From the NCBI GenBank assembly GCA_963813025.1, contig CAWEXO010000005.1:96001-160000 (forward strand): a DNA stretch of 64,000 bases, read 5' to 3'. The stretch is from an uncultured Verrucomicrobiae bacterium (GTDB lineage Bacteria > Verrucomicrobiota > Verrucomicrobiia > Chthoniobacterales > JAFAMB01). Below the pieces are notes generated by a model. The model saw only the letters and a program-made list of their open reading frames with translations, was not told the origin of the DNA and searched no databases. Below, one piece after another: positions 44,020 through 50,984 of this stretch (position 1 is the stretch's first letter; each line of letters begins with the position of its first letter). A program made the translations under genes and the position numbers.

Positions 44020-44898
44020 GTGCTTATGATGAGACCCGTAATTCTGGACACCGATATCGGCAGCGACGTCGACGATTTGCTGGCGCTGATCTTTCTGCTC
44101 CGTTCCACGCAGATCGAACTACGTGGAATCTCAACCGTTTATGGCGATACGCTTCGCCGCGCTCGTTTGGCGAAAGCGGTTTGCCGGATGTTAACGGACC
44201 GGGATTTGCCCATCATACCGGGCGAAAAGACCACCCTGTCGGGCCGCCAGGTTTATTGGGCAGGTATTGAAGGCGAAGGAGTGCCAAACCTTGATCAAAT
44301 GGAGGTTGAAACAGGACTGTCTGCACCCGAGTTCCTTATCGGGCAATCCCGCGACACGCAGGGAGAGCTGGAGATTTTGGCGATCGGCCCATTGACCAAT
44401 CTGGCTCGGGCGATTGAACAAGATTCAAGCTTCGTCAGTCGCGTAAAGCACTTACATCTCATGGGAGGTGCATTCTACAGCCCACGTCCTGAGCACAATA
44501 TCCGGTGCGATATTCTGGCGGCCAAACGAGTCTTTGGTTCGGGAATACCAATTACGGCGATCGGATTGGATGTCACAACAATTCCATCCATTACTGAAGC
44601 CGAGGTGATCCGGCTAGAGAGATCAAAGCATCCGGTCGGTCAGCTGGCTGCCGACCAAATCAGACGTTGGTGGATCTTTCGCAATGCAGCGATGAATCAT
44701 CCGCATGACCCGTTGGCCGCACTAAGCATGGAACGTCCTGACCTTTTTCGATTCGAGAAATGTTCAGTCGAGGTGGAGCTCGAGGGTTTGCACTACGGGA
44801 TTACCCGAAGAATTAAGGGACCGGGAACAACTCAAGTAGCCAGTGACGTTTTTCCGCGTACCGCACTCAACGAAATAATCAGTCGGCTTGAAAGTTGA
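44020..44898 (+). CDS. Nucleoside hydrolase (IU-NH family)
   Basis: 'LDTDIGSDVDD', 'GPLTNLA', 'HDPL'. Confidence 0.93.
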   Translation: MLMMRPVILDTDIGSDVDDLLALIFLLRSTQIELRGISTVYGDTLRRARLAKAVCRMLTDRDLPIIPGEKTTLSGRQVYWAGIEGEGVPNLDQMEVETGLSAPEFLIGQSRDTQGELEILAIGPLTNLARAIEQDSSFVSRVKHLHLMGGAFYSPRPEHNIRCDILAAKRVFGSGIPITAIGLDVTTIPSITEAEVIRLERSKHPVGQLAADQIRRWWIFRNAAMNHPHDPLAALSMERPDLFRFEKCSVEVELEGLHYGITRRIKGPGTTQVASDVFPRTALNEIISRLES

Positions 44899-44967
44899 TG
44901 CCGCATATCGCCGATTTGAATTTTTAGTCGGCTACGATAATCAGATTACATGAGAGGAGGTTCCTAA

Positions 44968-45612
44968 ATGAAAAACGATTCGAATTTGAATGTTGAGATT
45001 CGGGACGTGACAGACGGCTTGTGGGTGTGGCGATTCGAAAATCCCTTCTGGAAGCCTGGTCTCGATTGGGAGCCTCTCACGACGTCAACATGCGTTGCGT
45101 CAGGAGGTGAGATCCTGGTTCTGGATCCGCAGGCCCCACCATTCGGCGCAGTTGAGGTGTGGGAACGGCTTGATGCACGTCCCCCGACCGCAGTTGTTAT
45201 TCTCAAGCCGGATCACGTTCGAGATGCTGATCTGTTCGTGCGCCGTTACGGTTCCCGTGCATTCGGGCCAAAACTCTTCTTTCGTGACGACGTTCCTGAG
45301 ACCCTGCTGGAGCCGATTGAGCCCGGGAGCAATCTTCCGGGAGGGATCATCGCCCTGTATGATGGACGGGGCGAAAATGAAACGCCGCTATGGTTGCCTG
45401 AACAGCGGGCCCTTGTTTTTGCTGATGCGCTGACAGCGCCCGGAGGGGAGCTACGAGTTTGGGGGACACCATGGCATGAAGAGCGTGTATTACCGGCATT
45501 ACGCCGGTTGCTTGAGCTGCCATTCGAATACGTGATCGTTTCACACGGCGAGCCGGTGCATACTCGCGCCGCTTATGAGCGTGCTCTCGAGCTGATCCCC
45601 TGGACTGGATAA
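44968..45612 (+). CDS. Metallo-beta-lactamase-fold protein (degenerate motif)
   Basis: 'LKPDHVRD', 'VFADAL', 'VSHGEP'. Confidence 0.7.
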   Translation: MKNDSNLNVEIRDVTDGLWVWRFENPFWKPGLDWEPLTTSTCVASGGEILVLDPQAPPFGAVEVWERLDARPPTAVVILKPDHVRDADLFVRRYGSRAFGPKLFFRDDVPETLLEPIEPGSNLPGGIIALYDGRGENETPLWLPEQRALVFADALTAPGGELRVWGTPWHEERVLPALRRLLELPFEYVIVSHGEPVHTRAAYERALELIPWTG

Positions 45613-45701
45613 ACGAGGCTCAAAGAAAGAGAGCGTCTCGGAACATTCTTGGGCTCTGTGCTGGTAGGGCAGTATCTGAGCAGGTCTGGCAAGGGAAAAA
45701 G

Positions 45702-46976
45702 TTAAAGTTTTTCACCGATTGGTGAGTGGCGTTTTTTGAGGACTTGGAGGTAGCGCTCTTCGTCATAAGGGGTGCGGTCCTGCCAGAGCCGGAAGATGAC
45801 GCGGATCCATTTAAAGGCCAAGGCGCGCACGGCAGTGTGGTGGGACTTACCGCGGGCCATTTGCTCTTGATAATAGAGCTTGGCCCATTGGGAATAAGGA
45901 ATGGAATGAGCCGCGAATTCGTGGAAGCTCTGGCACAGGAATTTGGAGCGAAAGCGCCGCCGCTGGACGCTTTTGGTTTGGCCGCTGCGCACTTGGACCG
46001 GAGCGATTCCGCTTTTTTTCTGTACCTCCAGGGCTTGGGCAAAAGCCTGCCGATTGGAGCCAAAAGCCACCAACAAGCGCGGGGCTAATTGCGGGCCGGC
46101 TCCGGGCAGACTTTCAAAAATGTGCCGATCGGGATGTTTGGCAAACAGAGTGTGGATGGCTTTGTCAAAAGCCTTGATGGAATCTCGCAGCGGCAACAAT
46201 TGACTGACCAAACACTTGCAACTCAGCACGGAGGGCTCCAGCAGAGAACGATCCTCGGTGACGGTTTGGGCCCGAGCAATCTTTTCCAAGCGCTCCTCGA
46301 TCAAGCTCTGGCTGCGGCTGTGGTGCTGATAAAAAAAAGAGCGCAGGGTCTGGGGCTTGGCTTTTTTTAAACTCTGCAGGGTCGGCCAGCGTTTCAAAAA
46401 ATGCAGCGCCAGAGTGGTGCCCAAATCATCGAGGAGCTCGAGGGCCAGCGGATAGTAGACTTTGAGTAAGCTGGTGAGTTGGTTTTCGCACACCACGGAG
46501 GCCTCGACGGCTTTGCGTCGGTGCTGACCGAGCAAATCCAGTTCCCGCACTACCGGCTCCGGGGGTTGATAAAGCCGGAGCCGATCCCGATGGTGATCAA
46601 CGAGCTCTTCGATCAATTGGCTGTCGCGAGGGTCATCCTTGGCGCCACTAGTAAAGAAGACCTTGCGGTATTCGCTTAAACTCAAAGGATTGAGCGGATA
46701 GAGGTCGATCCAGTCTCCCTGGGTGCGGAGCATTTCAAAGAGTGCTCCCCGATTTTGTTCAAAACCAATGGCCACCCGCCCCTGCGGACCAGCCAAGCTT
46801 TTGAGCTCTTCGAGCCAGGTCCGAACCGAAACGGGATCGGCGCCCAGCTGGAATGTCCGGCATCCTCCCTCCGGACCAGAGCGTTGACAGACAGCGTGTT
46901 CTTTATCAGCCCAATCGATTCCCACGCTGACCATATAATGGGGATCTGGGACCGGAAACGGATTTGATCGGTTCAT
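45702..46976 (-). CDS. IS110-family DEDD recombinase/transposase
   Basis: 'GIDWADKEH' (D), 'GFEQ' (E), 'AKDDPRDS' (DD), HhH 'LPGAGP', catalytic Ser region 'GIAPVQVRSG'. Confidence 0.96.
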   Translation of the reverse strand: MNRSNPFPVPDPHYMVSVGIDWADKEHAVCQRSGPEGGCRTFQLGADPVSVRTWLEELKSLAGPQGRVAIGFEQNRGALFEMLRTQGDWIDLYPLNPLSLSEYRKVFFTSGAKDDPRDSQLIEELVDHHRDRLRLYQPPEPVVRELDLLGQHRRKAVEASVVCENQLTSLLKVYYPLALELLDDLGTTLALHFLKRWPTLQSLKKAKPQTLRSFFYQHHSRSQSLIEERLEKIARAQTVTEDRSLLEPSVLSCKCLVSQLLPLRDSIKAFDKAIHTLFAKHPDRHIFESLPGAGPQLAPRLLVAFGSNRQAFAQALEVQKKSGIAPVQVRSGQTKSVQRRRFRSKFLCQSFHEFAAHSIPYSQWAKLYYQEQMARGKSHHTAVRALAFKWIRVIFRLWQDRTPYDEERYLQVLKKRHSPIGEKL

Positions 46977-47029
46977 GCTTGCTCCTTTTTTCTGGTTTTA
47001 CCCAGCGCGAAAAAAGCCGCTTGGCTTTG

Positions 47030-47343
47030 GCCGTCCGAAATCCGTATAGTTAAGTCGTCGAAGTGTGAAGTGCTCGACCTCAACTAGAGTATTCGTTGTG
47101 ACGAATCAAAGCGCGACCGGCTGGCTCGAAACTCTGCCCTAAAGATCTCGCGGACCCGAAAATCCTATTCGTAGCCAGCCGGCGCGTCCTTCTTCGCGTG
47201 GGCAGCGCGGGATTTTGCCCGACTGCCCTTGGCAAAGAAAACCCTTTCTTTTTTCCAAAGCTTTCTTTTCTCCGGGCGGAGTTATTCACAAGCTGGAGCT
47301 CCGACCGGTAGGGCCTCCGACCACAGCTTGCTGAATAACTCCG
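47030..47343 (-). ncRNA. Predicted IS110 bridge RNA
   Basis: Structured non-coding end with loop segments matching the target (47157-47165, 47134-47141) and the donor (47043-47049, 47088-47092). Boundaries approximate. Confidence 0.8.
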
Positions 47344-47445
47344 GACTTGCTATACGAAAATTCACTCGAGCGGCCGAGGCCATGTTGCGAGACACTCCCA
47401 GACCGTATTCCCTCCTTGCTCCTTAGAACTCTGGCTGTCGGCCTG

Positions 47446-48435
47446 CTATAAGGCATGCACTGCGCTGAGCTGTTCGTGAACAAATTTGATGCGGTTCACC
47501 AACGGACGCCCGAACACCGGAGAGCTGATCTCGACGACGTCTTCGTCCTGCATCCTGATTCCATTGGCGAAAGAAAGTGTGCCTGTTCCGAAGAAATGGA
47601 CATGAACATCGCCAGGCCGACGAAATTGCGGGTACTTGAACTGGTGATATTCAAGGTTTGCCAGAGAATGGCTCATGTTGTCTTCTCCGGACAAAAACGG
47701 CTTTTCCCAAAGTACTTTTCCGTTCCGGAGAATGCGGCTTACTCCCGCCACGTGAGCGGGCAAAGACCCGACCAGCAATTCGGGTCCTAACGCGGAGGGG
47801 CGTAGTTTCGAATGCGCCAGGTAAAGATAGTTCCGTCTCTCCATGACGTGATCGGACAATTCGTTGCCGAGGGCAAACCCGACACGGCAAGGCCGAGTAT
47901 CGGGTCCGATGAGATAGAGCCCGACAATCTCCGGTTCTTCGCCGGCATCCTCGCCGAAACCAGGAACCGATAGTGAAGCGCCTGGACGAGCGATGATGCT
48001 GCCGTCGCCTTTATAGAACCACTCTGGCTGCACTCCCGGCCGACCCTGTTGAGGTTTTCCTCCCTCAACTCCCCACCGAAACATTTTGAGCGAATCAGTC
48101 AATTCTTCTGCCGCTGCGCTGATCTTCTGGTGCATTTGGTCGCGAGTCGCCGCGCTCCCCAGATGGGTCAGACCGGTTCCAGTGACTAGACAATGTGCTG
48201 GATCAGGGTGATCCAGTGGCGGAAGAATTTTCTGCTCTGCTAATAATCGGCTGTACTCATGCGTTCCCGCGACTTGGCAATTCTCGATTTGTTGGGCCAG
48301 AGTTTTACCTGAACCGATTGCTTGCCAAGCCAAATCCCGGATCGATTCCAGGCCTGCGATTTCCAGCGCCTTTTCTTCGTCGATGATCGCCACGGCACGG
48401 GCGCCGTCCGCTTTTTCGAATTGGATTAAATTCAT
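47446..48435 (-). CDS. AraD1/GguC-family fumarylacetoacetate-hydrolase-like protein
   Basis: 'PPLDHPDPAH', 'GTGLTHLGSA', 'QPEWFYKG', 'YLYLAHSKLR'. Confidence 0.88.
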   Translation of the reverse strand: MNLIQFEKADGARAVAIIDEEKALEIAGLESIRDLAWQAIGSGKTLAQQIENCQVAGTHEYSRLLAEQKILPPLDHPDPAHCLVTGTGLTHLGSAATRDQMHQKISAAAEELTDSLKMFRWGVEGGKPQQGRPGVQPEWFYKGDGSIIARPGASLSVPGFGEDAGEEPEIVGLYLIGPDTRPCRVGFALGNELSDHVMERRNYLYLAHSKLRPSALGPELLVGSLPAHVAGVSRILRNGKVLWEKPFLSGEDNMSHSLANLEYHQFKYPQFRRPGDVHVHFFGTGTLSFANGIRMQDEDVVEISSPVFGRPLVNRIKFVHEQLSAVHAL

Positions 48436-48470
48436 AAGCTGAAGCCGGTCGGGCCGTTTCGAGCGGACTC

Positions 48471-50984
48471 CTATTTTCGGCGTTTGTACTCTTGCACTGA
48501 ATAGAGCGCCACTGCGATCAGCAAAAGAAGACCTGTCCAGATATACTGGTAATAGGCAGAGACATGGAGCTGGTTCAGAGCGTTTTGCAAGAGCACCAGA
48601 AAGACCGCCCCGAGAAGCGTTCCCACCATCGTGCCGCGACCGCCAAAAACGCTGGTACCCCCGACTACAACCGCAGTGATCGAAGTAAGTGTAAACTGAC
48701 TACCCGCTTGCGCGTCGCCGCTACCGATCCGTGCTGCGATCACCAAACCGGCCAGCGCCGCCATTGCCCCGCAAAAAAGGTAGGCGAGACAACGAACCTG
48801 ATTGACCAGGATCCCGCAGACGTAAGCGGCCTCTCGGTTCGATCCCGTTGCGTAGAGTCTCGATCCGATCCGACCCTTGACCAGCAATACTTCGCCGACT
48901 GTTGTGATCAGAAGAACGACTAAACTGGCTACCGGCACCCAACCTATCCGAAGGGTGATCAAATCAGAAAACCGATCGCTTACATGCCCGCCGGGGCTGG
49001 GTCGCACGATCAATGCGAAACCGAACGCTAATGAATAGGTTGCCAGCGTACTGATCAGGTCGGGGATGCCGCACAACAAAATCAAAACGCAATTCAGGGC
49101 GGCTATGGCTAAGGCGACCAATAAGCAAGTAACTACGCCAAAAATTTCGCTCCCGTTATTCAGAATGAGGTAGGAGGCGATGGCCGTAATCAGACTGATC
49201 GAGGGCCCAACCGAAAGATCAATACCCCCAAGCACGATCACTGCCATTTGGCCGATAGCAACGAGGGCAAGCGGAACAATTTGGATCAGCAAATTGCCAA
49301 GATTTCTTTCCGTCAGAAAATACGGTGAACGGCTGGTCGTGTAGAGACTCACCGCCAAGATCATAGCCGAAAGGAACAACACGCCCGAGTAGCGACGCCA
49401 GAGGACTTCCGCAAGGCCGACCCGGTGCCCGACTTTTTGGTCAGGGGCCAAGATGTCGCCGCCGTTTTCCACACGGCCAGAGTCCCGCCTTGTTCTGACC
49501 GCGCTTCCAATAATTCTTTCTTCAGTTGCTTCCGCCGCCGGGATCTCGTCGACGATCGCCCCGTTGGCAACGACAAGAATGCGGTCGCTGAGGCCGATCA
49601 GCTCCAAAAGATCGGAGGTTAGCAAAATTACTGCGGCACCTTCAGTCGCCAATCGGCGAATGACGCGATAAAGCTCTAGCTTGGTCGCGACATCAACCCC
49701 TAAGGTTGGCTCGTCTAAAAGGTAAATTCTGGGTTTCGCCAACACCCAGCGACCCATTGCCACCTTTTGCTGGTTGCCGCCACTTAGCAGCGCGATCGGT
49801 TGCTCAGACGACGGAGTTTTCACCCGAAAACGATCAATTGTCTGAAGGACCGCCCTGGTTTCCTGAGCACGGTTGAGAACACCAAATGTGCTCCAGGCCG
49901 ACAGATGAGGATTACCAATATTATCACGAACGGAGAGCGGCGGAAAAAGGCCTTCTCCGCGACGGTCCGCTGGTGCGTAAACCAAGCCCGCGTGGATCGC
50001 GTTACGCGGGGAACGTAACAAAATATTTGTCCCGTCAACCTGTGTTTCGCCGCGCGTGGGCACCAACCCAAAAAGGGAGCGCACGATTTCGCGTTGGCCG
50101 TTTCCCTGAATCCCCCCCAGGCCAACGATCTCACCTGCCGCTGCCGTGAACGAAATATTCTGAAAATAGCCAGAGCTGGATAGGCGATTGACTCTGAGCC
50201 GCGTCAGGCCGGTTCCGGCTGATTTTGGAGGAAAAGCGAGTGCAAGTTGTCGACCCACCATTTTGCTCACCAGATCATCTTCACTTATCCGATCGTTCCC
50301 GACCGTGGAAACAACCTCGCCATCTTTCAGCACGGTAATTCGATCGGCGAAGGCCAACACTTCCCGCAGACGGTGAGAAATATAAATGATTCCTATTCCC
50401 CTCGTGCGCAGGTTGCGCAAAATGCGCTGCAATCGATCGACCTCGGCAGGATCCAGAGCAGAAGTGGGTTCATCGAGGATCAGGACTGCCGGGTCAGCGG
50501 CGACAGCCCGAGCGATTTCGACGAATTGGCGCTCTACGGTGCTCAGTTCGCAAACAAGCCGCCTGCAATCCAGCTCAATCCCGAGCCGATTCAGAATGGC
50601 TTTGCTGCGCTGTTCGATCTCTCGGCGATTGACGAGCAGGATTGGACCTGGCTCTCGTCCAAGAAGAATATTTTGGGCGACGTCCAGATCTCCAACCAGC
50701 CGGGTGTCCTGGTATACCATGGCGATTCCCAGATCATGGGCACGCCGCGGAGAGGTGAAACTTACTGTCTCACCTTTTACGCGGATCGTGCCAGAATCCG
50801 GCGGTAAAACGCCCGCCAGTATTCGCATCAAGGTGGTTTTACCAGCTCCGTTCTCTCCCACCAGCCCGTGTATTTCGCCGGCTCGACAAGAAAAAGAAAC
50901 GCGCCGTAACGCCTGAACTCCGGGGAATGATCGCTCAACGGCGTCGACCTCCAGAACCGGCGGCTCGCCCGAGGGCGCGATCAT
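48471..50984 (-). CDS. Monosaccharide ABC ATPase (tandem NBD) fused to a permease
   Basis: 'GENGAGKTT', 'LSGGNQQK', then TM domain 'GGIDLSVG...VVGGTS'. Confidence 0.92.
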   Translation of the reverse strand: MIAPSGEPPVLEVDAVERSFPGVQALRRVSFSCRAGEIHGLVGENGAGKTTLMRILAGVLPPDSGTIRVKGETVSFTSPRRAHDLGIAMVYQDTRLVGDLDVAQNILLGREPGPILLVNRREIEQRSKAILNRLGIELDCRRLVCELSTVERQFVEIARAVAADPAVLILDEPTSALDPAEVDRLQRILRNLRTRGIGIIYISHRLREVLAFADRITVLKDGEVVSTVGNDRISEDDLVSKMVGRQLALAFPPKSAGTGLTRLRVNRLSSSGYFQNISFTAAAGEIVGLGGIQGNGQREIVRSLFGLVPTRGETQVDGTNILLRSPRNAIHAGLVYAPADRRGEGLFPPLSVRDNIGNPHLSAWSTFGVLNRAQETRAVLQTIDRFRVKTPSSEQPIALLSGGNQQKVAMGRWVLAKPRIYLLDEPTLGVDVATKLELYRVIRRLATEGAAVILLTSDLLELIGLSDRILVVANGAIVDEIPAAEATEERIIGSAVRTRRDSGRVENGGDILAPDQKVGHRVGLAEVLWRRYSGVLFLSAMILAVSLYTTSRSPYFLTERNLGNLLIQIVPLALVAIGQMAVIVLGGIDLSVGPSISLITAIASYLILNNGSEIFGVVTCLLVALAIAALNCVLILLCGIPDLISTLATYSLAFGFALIVRPSPGGHVSDRFSDLITLRIGWVPVASLVVLLITTVGEVLLVKGRIGSRLYATGSNREAAYVCGILVNQVRCLAYLFCGAMAALAGLVIAARIGSGDAQAGSQFTLTSITAVVVGGTSVFGGRGTMVGTLLGAVFLVLLQNALNQLHVSAYYQYIWTGLLLLIAVALYSVQEYKRRK

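Follow-up and report, generated by a model that had tools for sequence, protein, structure and literature searches.

In a 64,000-nucleotide stretch of DNA from an uncultured Verrucomicrobiae bacterium (the window), the minus strand from 47186 to 47020 very probably encodes the bridge RNA of an active insertion sequence of the IS110 group, an RNA whose production is predicted from sequence. It is probably part of a longer transcript, which would start near 47342. An RNA-guided recombinase had been proposed here by a first-pass annotation of the same DNA, and this reading is now supported by a conserved RNA structure and by covariation between guides and flanks across about 80 relatives. The ends of the element, its target, the conservation of the RNA structure and the family-wide covariation of guides and flanks are direct observations.

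The element and its copies

The RNA lies in the left end of a 1.68-kb IS110-family element (minus strand, 45671-47354; 1684 nt), with the following parts and borders.

45671..47354, minus strand: whole IS110-family insertion sequence; common G at 47355 and 45670; ends taken from junctions compared with empty sites
46977..47354, minus strand: left non-coding end, 378 nt, read directly
45702..46976, minus strand: recombinase gene, 424 aa, with PF01548 and PF02371
45701-45671, minus strand: right end, only 31 nt, read directly
47355..47363, minus strand: left half of the target, GAATTTTCG, positions 1-9, the last two being C8 and G9; equal to the left target guide with a G.T wobble
45663..45670, minus strand: right half of the target, GCCCTACC, from the right junctions of the copies

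The ends were set by comparing 11 left and 10 right junctions of the copies with empty sites. From this comparison one G is common to target and element, so that the element itself runs from 47354 to 45671. The host genome, searched as 16 contigs (4.42 Mb), holds 10 full copies at 98-100% identity and one 220-nt fragment, and the 424-aa frame is intact in all 10 full copies, each of which sits at a different locus. The long left end, the short right end, the sequence-specific insertion and the lack of long terminal inverted repeats are those of an IS110-group element; the long left and short right ends are given as the layout of this group in the available text of PMC11208160.

How widely is the element distributed? 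When the host and 30 relatives' genomes were compared, it was found at ≥99% identity in the host only. The same-genus genome G001 (79% complete) gave no element match, and the best match among the 30 genomes is 47% identical. The 15-mer of the target occurs 127 times in the host genome, 6 times in G001, 57 times in G007 and 10 times in G010, and it was not found in the remaining 27 of the 30. A genome scan for relatives of the element returned 25 loci; Verrucomicrobiota and Acidiferrales assemblies supplied the loci at about 70% identity, and Planctomycetota, Acidobacteriota and others those at 33-48%. This distribution, the counts of the target 15-mer and the presence of 70%-identical elements in other phyla suggest that the element arrived horizontally.

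The same genome carries other IS110-family genes (G000 C3:83266-84420, C13:18614-19798, C11:72379-73281 and C13:453126-453863). They are only 30-34% identical to the recombinase described here and belong to other IS110 lineages; one has an internal TAA. A separate observation concerns 3 of the 11 left ends (G000 C13:92669, C11:77965 and C1:207986), which have a 13-nt tandem duplication (GTATAGCAAGTCC twice) right after the junction. It is absent from the copy at 45671-47354, and its unit has CG at both borders; pseudo-site recombination or slippage may have produced it.

The target repeat and the junctions

All 10 full copies are inserted at one site of a single abundant repeat, ...AATTTTC-G-CCCTACC. 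At the left junction, 11 of 11 ends read [G/A]AATTTTCG followed by TATAGCAAG, with TATAGC next to the junction and TATAG beginning at 47354. At the right junction, ...CAGATACT is followed by GCCCTACC, and the last base of the element is the T at 45671. All 10 right junctions have ...GATACT followed by G (once A) and CCCTACC, that is, GCCCTACC in 9 of 10 and ACCCTACC in 1 of 10. The empty site, ...AATTTTCGCCCTACC, occurs 127 times in the genome. Unoccupied sites follow the form ...GCTCGAAT[G/A]AATTTTCGCCCTACCG..., with 180 found by a loose pattern; the exact unoccupied ATTTTCGCCCTA is present 136 times and the ATTCTCG variant 50 times. This variant has received none of the 10 insertions, against 50 of 186 sites, for which the probability by chance is about 0.04, a weak signal. 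A preference for G over A at target position 1 is not significant (G:A is 6:5 at occupied sites and 45:87 at empty ones; Fisher p = 0.20).

Two copies, G000 C4:2756-4465 and C16:83655-85360, depart slightly from the others. One has the right junction GATACT-A-CCCTACC and a normal left junction; the A that replaces the common G is either a later mutation or the result of insertion at one of only 3 non-G sites. The other has a right end that lacks one A (CTGCTCGATACT), a few bases before the junction.

As for the repeat, the target is at the seam of a composite REP-like unit (47365-47378, minus strand, and a repeat family genome-wide). The left part reads ...GGCTCAAACAAGTTCTCGC..GCTCGAAT[G/A]AATTTTC and the right part GCCCTACCG..CAGG....GTTGCGAGACA.TCTCT, and the copies are frequently inverted pairs about 110 nt apart or 52-nt tandem units. 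In G007, which is of the same family as the host and of another genus, the target 15-mer forms tandem arrays in which it returns about every 90 nt (contig C2, about 1174351-1199565 and 3301514-3301709). A target stem-loop of the ISPpu10 type was considered and dropped: a 5-bp hairpin precedes the site in this copy, and it was not seen by eye in the repeat consensus.

The recombinase

The 424-aa protein matches PF01548 (E 1.3e-20) and PF02371 (E 1.1e-8), and it scores 148.4 bits against NCBIfam NF033542, "IS110 family RNA-guided transposase", for which the cut-off is 140. In the PDB its Tnp domain matches ISCro4 (9t56, E 2e-6) and IS621 (8wt6, E 8.7e-6). An alignment with 10-11 relatives shows no variation at D21, E73, D115 and D118 and almost none at S331, the counterpart of the ESG serine in the ISCro4 alignment. 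From E73 to D115 the distance is 42 and from D115 to D118 it is 3, the same as in E60-D102-D105 of IS621, given as its catalytic residues in the available text of PMC11208158; judging from the spacing, the residues of the two enzymes are probably equivalent in catalysis. The protein has an N-terminal DEDD RuvC-like domain and a C-terminal Tnp domain with a conserved serine, and the element belongs to the IS110 family, IS110 group.

The target-binding loop

Positions are numbered as in IS621, following the accessible text of PMC11208160 and PMC11208158. The scheme has 14 positions with the core at 8-9, and the top strand is cut between 9 and 10. Of the two target guides, the left one reads as the top strand does at positions 1-9 and the right one is the complement of positions 14-8. 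Each right-hand guide is followed by two handshake bases, which pair with the other DNA (positions 7-6) once the top strand has been exchanged, and a flipped-out A precedes each left-hand guide by 7 nt (same sources). In the present element, the first of the two loops is composed as follows.

47117..47182, minus strand: target-binding loop; helices 1 and 2 are paired at 93-97% in relatives, with compensatory changes
47182-47173/47126-47117, minus strand: outer stem, perfect 10 bp
47171-47168/47130-47127, minus strand: inner stem CGAA/UUCG, with a bulged A at 47172
47156-47144, minus strand: hairpin of 4 bp between the two target guides
47157..47165, minus strand: left target guide GGAUUUUCG, sense of the target top strand, positions 1-9
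47133..47141, minus strand: right target guide, reverse complement of the right junction CTGCCCTA

The coordinates and words of the first-pass annotation all check out on the minus strand, as do the matches to flanks and ends that it had claimed. Its 10-bp stem is indeed perfect and joins CCGGCUGGCU (47182-47173) to AGCCAGCCGG (47126-47117). The left target guide, GGAUUUUCG (47165-47157), equals GAATTTTCG at 8 of 9 positions, the ninth being a G.T wobble as annotated; its fit to the target needs one or two such wobbles. The guide starts at G47165, 7 nt after the bulged A47172. The word UAGGGCAG (47141-47134), read in the annotation as complementary to the recombined right junction, is the reverse complement of CTGCCCTA: UAGGGC (47141-47136) corresponds to positions 14-9, A47135 pairs with donor T8 and not with target C8, and G47134 pairs with donor C7. 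The G and A that follow A47135 are handshake positions 7 and 6. Compared with most relatives, this right target guide is one nucleotide out of register. The 5' strand of the loop is the sense of the left half of the target, the 3' strand is complementary to the right half, and both reach the core.

Could such matches arise by chance? When the 378-nt left end was shuffled 200,000 times, the three words turned up in 0.69%, 0.85% and 1.9% of shuffles. The joint chance of GGAUUUUCG, UAGGGCAG and CUAUACG (the right donor guide, see below), taken as a product, is about 1e-6 before any requirement on their order.

Conservation of the RNA and covariation with the flanks

Plain thermodynamic folding of the left end was set aside: it pairs the guide segments with each other, and the structure was therefore written by hand from its stems. 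With this structure, a covariance model (R1) was made from this element and two loci of the 70% clade and searched with filters off. The relatives were the 25 genome loci and 80 loci kept of 537 relatives in a metagenome scan. At E≤0.01, R1 matches the coding strand immediately before the recombinase gene in 74 of the 80 metagenomic loci, that is, 36/40 in one batch (not L048, L049, L075 and L076) and 38/40 in the other (not L109 and L117), and it matches 12 of the 25 genome loci. In two metagenomic alignments, 94.0% and 93.5% of the cells assigned to stems are paired, versus 27-46% when the partners are slid by 1-3 columns. Compensatory two-sided changes occur in 35 of 37 base pairs, and 0 of 500 shuffles reach the observed values, figures to be read with two cautions: fitting the alignments (A5 and A6) to the model works in favour of the structure, and related rows inflate the shuffle controls. 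Each of the two loops is closed by a stem, has an inner hairpin and is conserved by covariation. Identity to the 70% clade at the DNA level is 85% in the two loops, 72-73% in the coding sequence and 71-74% in the rest of the left end.

The same loci permit a comparison of guides with host DNA. Three alignments with 118 rows were used; 109 plus-strand rows were taken together with this element, and 77 had usable loop-strand lengths. Left junctions were located by the first 7 nt of the right donor guide with ≤1 mismatch (65 of 77 rows), and nine flank bases, positions -1 to 7, were compared with the left-guide columns in a single fixed register. The left guides match their own left flanks at a mean of 4.9/9, versus 2.7 (sd 0.19) after permutation, for 47 distinct guides (0 of 10,000 permutations); several of the low-scoring rows are off by one base. 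Right junctions were located by the CTCAG motif, with candidates chosen by likeness to the RNA's own left donor guide, which gave 63 anchored rows. Positions 10-16 were compared with the reverse complement of the right-guide strand in two registers, for real and permuted pairs alike. The right guides match their own right flanks at a mean of 4.35/7, versus 2.28 (sd 0.16), for 43 distinct guides (again 0 of 10,000). Guide-target covariation across homologues, suggested by the first-pass annotation as a check, is thus found on both sides. In the closest clade, guide and flank change together: GGAUUUUCG goes with [G/A]AATTTTCG here, and AGGUUUUCG goes with AGGTTTTCG in L015.

A scan of 44500-48500 against Rfam at E≤1 gave no bridge-RNA family, only two chance-level matches (mir-223 and MAT2A_D); the family may simply not be curated. 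In four metagenomic loci (L084, L091, L101 and L115) a second match of the RNA model lies downstream of the recombinase gene, which suggests a tandem neighbouring copy or another element inserted alongside.

The donor-binding loop and the left donor guide

The second loop comprises the features below, two of which are competing positions for the left donor guide.

47024..47112, minus strand: donor-binding loop; helices 3-5 have compensatory changes in relatives
47112-47106/47030-47024, minus strand: outer stem, covariation
47103-47100/47035-47032, minus strand: stem CGUC/GACG, covariation
47095-47092/47039-47036, minus strand: inner stem CGAA/UUCG, covariation
~47078-47050, minus strand: hairpin of the donor-binding loop
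47041..47049, minus strand: right donor guide, reverse complement of the left junction CGTATAG
47079..47089, minus strand: left donor guide by homology, CUCUAGUUGAG, in the relatives' columns just before the donor-loop hairpin
47088..47092, minus strand: left donor guide of the first-pass annotation, AUACU; probably not the guide

The inner stem, which was left out of R1, co-varies too: CGCA/UGCG, CGAA/UUCG, CGGA/UCCG and CGUA/UAUG are found, the rows of the last type having been read by eye. The right donor guide is clear. CUAUACG (47049-47043) is the reverse complement of the left junction CGTATAG, as the annotation had it; CUAUAC (47049-47044) corresponds to positions 14-9 and pairs with the first bases of the element, while G47043 pairs with target C8 and could only wobble with donor T8. 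Of the handshake bases after it, A47041 pairs with target T6, and G47042 merely wobbles with target T7. The equivalent in relatives is CUAUAAG for CT-TATAG, and the 3' strand of the donor loop fits the first bases of the element with ≤1 mismatch in 65 of the 77 usable rows.

The left target, right target and right donor guides stand where the first-pass annotation had put them, in the order left target, right target, left donor, right donor, which is the published one (PMC11208160, PMC11208158, available text). The left donor guide is the exception: AUACU is probably misplaced. The annotation had itself called this its weakest assignment; these five nucleotides alone are not above chance. In relatives, the ten bases before the donor-loop hairpin are CUCAGAUGUC, equal to the right end CTCAGATGTC, and guide and right end agree at 8-10 of 10 positions in 29 of 43 distinct cases. 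The two also change jointly, as in CUCAGACC/CTCAGACC, CUCAGAGG/CTCAGAGG and CUCAGGGU/CTCAGGGT. In this element the homologous columns (47089-47080), CUCUAGUUGA, agree with CTCAGATACT at 4 of 10 positions without a gap; when one U is bulged out in a hand alignment, 7 of 10 pair (6 Watson-Crick and 1 wobble), and the same alignment in the sister clade pairs 9 of 10, including 2 wobbles. On the strength of the relatives' columns, the conserved AUACUC, the co-varying stem and the bulged-U alignments, the left donor guide is placed, with modest confidence, at 47089-47079, where it would pair with the last bases of the element.

The main competitor of this placement is AUACU (47092-47088) itself, extended to CGAAUACU, as the working left donor guide of this clade. 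The clade would have shifted its guide 8 nt upstream after the right end changed from ...GATGTCT to ...GATACTG. AUACU does match the ATACT of the right end, and by hand comparison CGAAUACU pairs with CAGATACT at 6 of 8 positions plus one wobble. It also stops exactly at position 8, as the left donor guide of IS621 does in its published description as available, and the canonical columns match worse here (the 4 of 10 given above). Against it, AUACUC, within the motif ACG-A/C-AUACUC, is kept in relatives whose right ends read GATGTCT and have no ATACT. Moreover, CGAA (47095-47092) belongs to the stem that co-varies in the family, A47092, the first A of AUACU, being its last pair. In the sister clade the match of CGAAUACU falls to 5/8 (5 plus 1 wobble in L015), against 9/10 for the canonical columns with the bulged U, and any 5-mer is expected by chance in about 1/3 of 378-nt sequences. 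The shifted guide is accordingly an unlikely reading, even if one that deserves to be kept in mind, and the position at 47089-47079 is preferred.

Left-end hairpins and a possible promoter at the predicted circle junction

Upstream of the two loops, the left end contains two further hairpins, and the two ends of the element carry the halves of a possible promoter.

47200..47228, minus strand: 5' stem-loop GGGCAG...CUGCCC, from folding; 5' of the target-binding loop
47277..47343, minus strand: long near-perfect hairpin, 67 nt, from folding; 5' part of the left end
47349..47354, minus strand: -10-like TATAGC, first six bases of the element
45687..45692, minus strand: -35-like TTGCCA, in the right end

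The hairpin at 47200-47228 is kept in the 70% clade with a different inner sequence (CGGG/CCCG versus CGUU/AACG, by eye). The 67-nt hairpin is conserved, except for a variable apex, in each of the 5 loci inspected from the 70% clade. Its apex here contains GCCCTACCGG, which is the right half of the target repeat, and the hairpin would begin near the start of a circle-junction transcript.

In the predicted circle, TTGCCA is followed by a 17-nt spacer ending in the common G, and then by TATAGC. A junction promoter of this kind (each hexamer ≥4/6, spacer 16-18 nt) is present in 30 of 37 relatives, mostly as TTGACA-17-TATAGT, with which TTGCCA-17-TATAGC aligns base for base. No sigma-70-like site was found on the RNA strand of the integrated copy, and such a promoter, to judge from its pattern, would form solely across the circle junction. 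A promoter in this place has been reported for IS110 elements (PMC11208160, in the part available).

The mismatched core and strand exchange

The target, AAATTTT-CG-CCCTA, and the predicted donor circle, CAGATAC-TG-TATAG, have the core C-G and T-G, respectively, with only the G in common. An identical CT core in target and donor, looked for in this element, is not present. A CT/CT core is a feature of IS621 and its close orthologues. In the available text of PMC11208160, IS621 strongly prefers matched CT cores, and Durrant et al. filtered for "CT core guides", by which the existence of other cores is implied.

CT-core relatives have C8-T9 in both partners, with left junctions LT-CT-TATAG and right junctions CTCAGATGT-CT-RT. 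The clade of this element (with L013-15 and L038-41) has G at position 9, with C in the target and T in the donor at position 8, and carries one extra nucleotide 3' of the right target guide. Given this extra nucleotide, the register of the family cannot hold for the left-reading guides and the right target guide at once. The one-nucleotide shift may lie in either loop; the donor register is a choice, made because it leaves the junction-promoter spacer at 17 nt.

At the core base that differs, both right-hand guides pair with the non-cognate partner. The annotation had claimed that the 3' bases of these guides fit the recombined junctions better than the starting substrates, and so they do, in agreement with the "handshake" idea as published in the accessible text: the bases lying 3' of these guides find their partners in the non-cognate DNA, G47042 through a wobble. 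C8 stands in 11 of 11 left junctions and T8 in 10 of 10 right junctions, with the same pattern in the sister clade (4 left, 5 right). If both strands were exchanged around a 2-nt core, position 8 would be left mismatched and half of the progeny would then carry the opposite arrangement; none is seen. This pattern, which is a pattern and not a test, fits the top-strand insertion described in the available text of two preprints (10.1101/2025.10.25.684509, 10.64898/2026.08.31.748434), and it fits a one-base crossover as well.

Taken together, these data raise the tentative possibility, less probable than its opposite, of a natural bridge system in which target and donor differ at the first core position, the guides are set for the incoming strand, and either the top strand alone is transferred or the crossover spans a single base. 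If true, the contested model in which IS110 elements move by their top strand (copy-out, paste-in) would gain evidence from natural genomes, and core identity would be dispensable. Both the design of guides and the debate on single- versus double-strand exchange could profit from a mismatched core base whose right-hand guides suit the exchanged state. It is the one point that merits experiment.

Several points count against the bridge-RNA reading itself: the left donor guide fits poorly in both of its candidate registers, the left target guide needs wobbles, the right target guide is offset by one nucleotide from most relatives, the cores are not matched CT, and the RNA strand of the integrated copy lacks a sigma-70-like site. 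The mismatched core may also be read as a sign of decay. In that case, together with the weak match of the left donor guide and the wobbles of the left target guide, it would mark the bridge RNA of a relic that is no longer mobile. Ten copies at 98-100% identity, with intact frames at ten different sites, speak against this, as does the lack of a match in same-genus G001 (79% complete), which points to recent spread. The sister clade, with coding DNA just 72-73% identical, has the same core arrangement, and a relic appears quite improbable. That the region is merely a structured 5' untranslated region or a recombinase-binding end, its flank matches being chance or terminal repeats, can practically be dismissed: thermodynamic folding alone does pair the "guide" segments with each other, whereas host DNA outside the element co-varies with the loops across 43-47 distinct guides, the three words have a joint chance of about 1e-6, and the loops are better conserved than the coding sequence.

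Proposed mechanism and significance

How would the bridge RNA of an active element work here? The left target guide (47165-47157), in the first internal loop, would read the target. In the second loop, the right donor guide (47049-47043) would pair with the first bases of the element, (G)TATAG, and the left donor guide, most likely 47089-47079, with its last bases. The DEDD/Ser recombinase, loaded with this RNA, would bring the excised circle (...CAGATAC-TG-TATAGC...) to the repeat ...AAATTTT-CG-CCCTACC, and the strands would be exchanged next to the common G. In this scheme we infer the making of the RNA, its binding by the recombinase, the circle and the exact positions of the cuts.

The mechanism as such was already published in 2024 (PMC11208160, PMC11208158, as far as their available text goes), and the NCBI family name already is "RNA-guided transposase". 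What the present analysis adds is a well-anchored natural example of a bridge RNA whose guides can be read and whose element has ten copies and 136 free target sites, in a lineage far removed from the E. coli IS621. In addition, about 80 related RNAs provide a guide-flank covariation that was obtained here independently of the published analysis.

Comparison with known systems

One of the nearest known systems is IS621 (Durrant et al. 2024, PMC11208160; Hiraizumi et al. 2024, PMC11208158), compared here on the basis of the text available from these reports. As in IS621, the RNA lies in the long left end and presents a 5' stem-loop, then the target-binding loop and then the donor-binding loop. 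The left-hand guides read like the top strand, to which the right-hand guides are complementary; 7 nt ahead of the left target guide there is a bulged A, and behind each right-hand guide come two handshake positions. The circle-junction promoter, the REP-like target repeat and the DEDD and Ser recombinase domains are shared as well. There are also differences. The recombinase is distant (the Tnp domain alone aligns, E 8.7e-6) and has 424 aa versus a 328-residue chain; the left end measures 378 nt versus 191 bp and has an extra 67-nt hairpin, absent from the published description of IS621 in its accessible part. The crossover dinucleotide is CG/TG here versus CT/CT there, and the left donor guide of the present family extends two bases further out, over positions -1 to 8.

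Closer to home are the CT-core relatives L016-L117 (41-48% protein identity), from Planctomycetota, Acidobacteriota and soil or sediment metagenomes. They share the RNA model, the TATAG left end, the CTCAG... right end and the junction promoter. Unlike the element described here, they show C8-T9 in target and donor alike, and their left donor guide matches well.

The seekRNA elements of the IS1111 group are RNA-guided DEDD recombinases of the same family as IS110. They are named in the accessible part of PMC13604230, and the IS1111 group has its RNA in the long right end (PMC11208160, available text); in the present element, unlike these, the right end measures 31 nt and the RNA is in the left end.

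Two other systems invite comparison, within the limits of the text available for each. In ISPpu10 of Pseudomonas putida (10.64898/2026.03.19.712850), as here, all insertions are in copies of one conserved intergenic repeat, and a stem-loop encoded by the target is described as a second layer of specificity. For CazIS110-1 and IS621, the preprints cited above (10.1101/2025.10.25.684509, 10.64898/2026.08.31.748434) report insertion mainly through the top strand, in a copy-out manner. Their evidence is experimental and comes from other elements, whereas that presented here is a pattern of natural junctions; as their single-strand model predicts, the left junction always carries the target base and the right junction the donor base.
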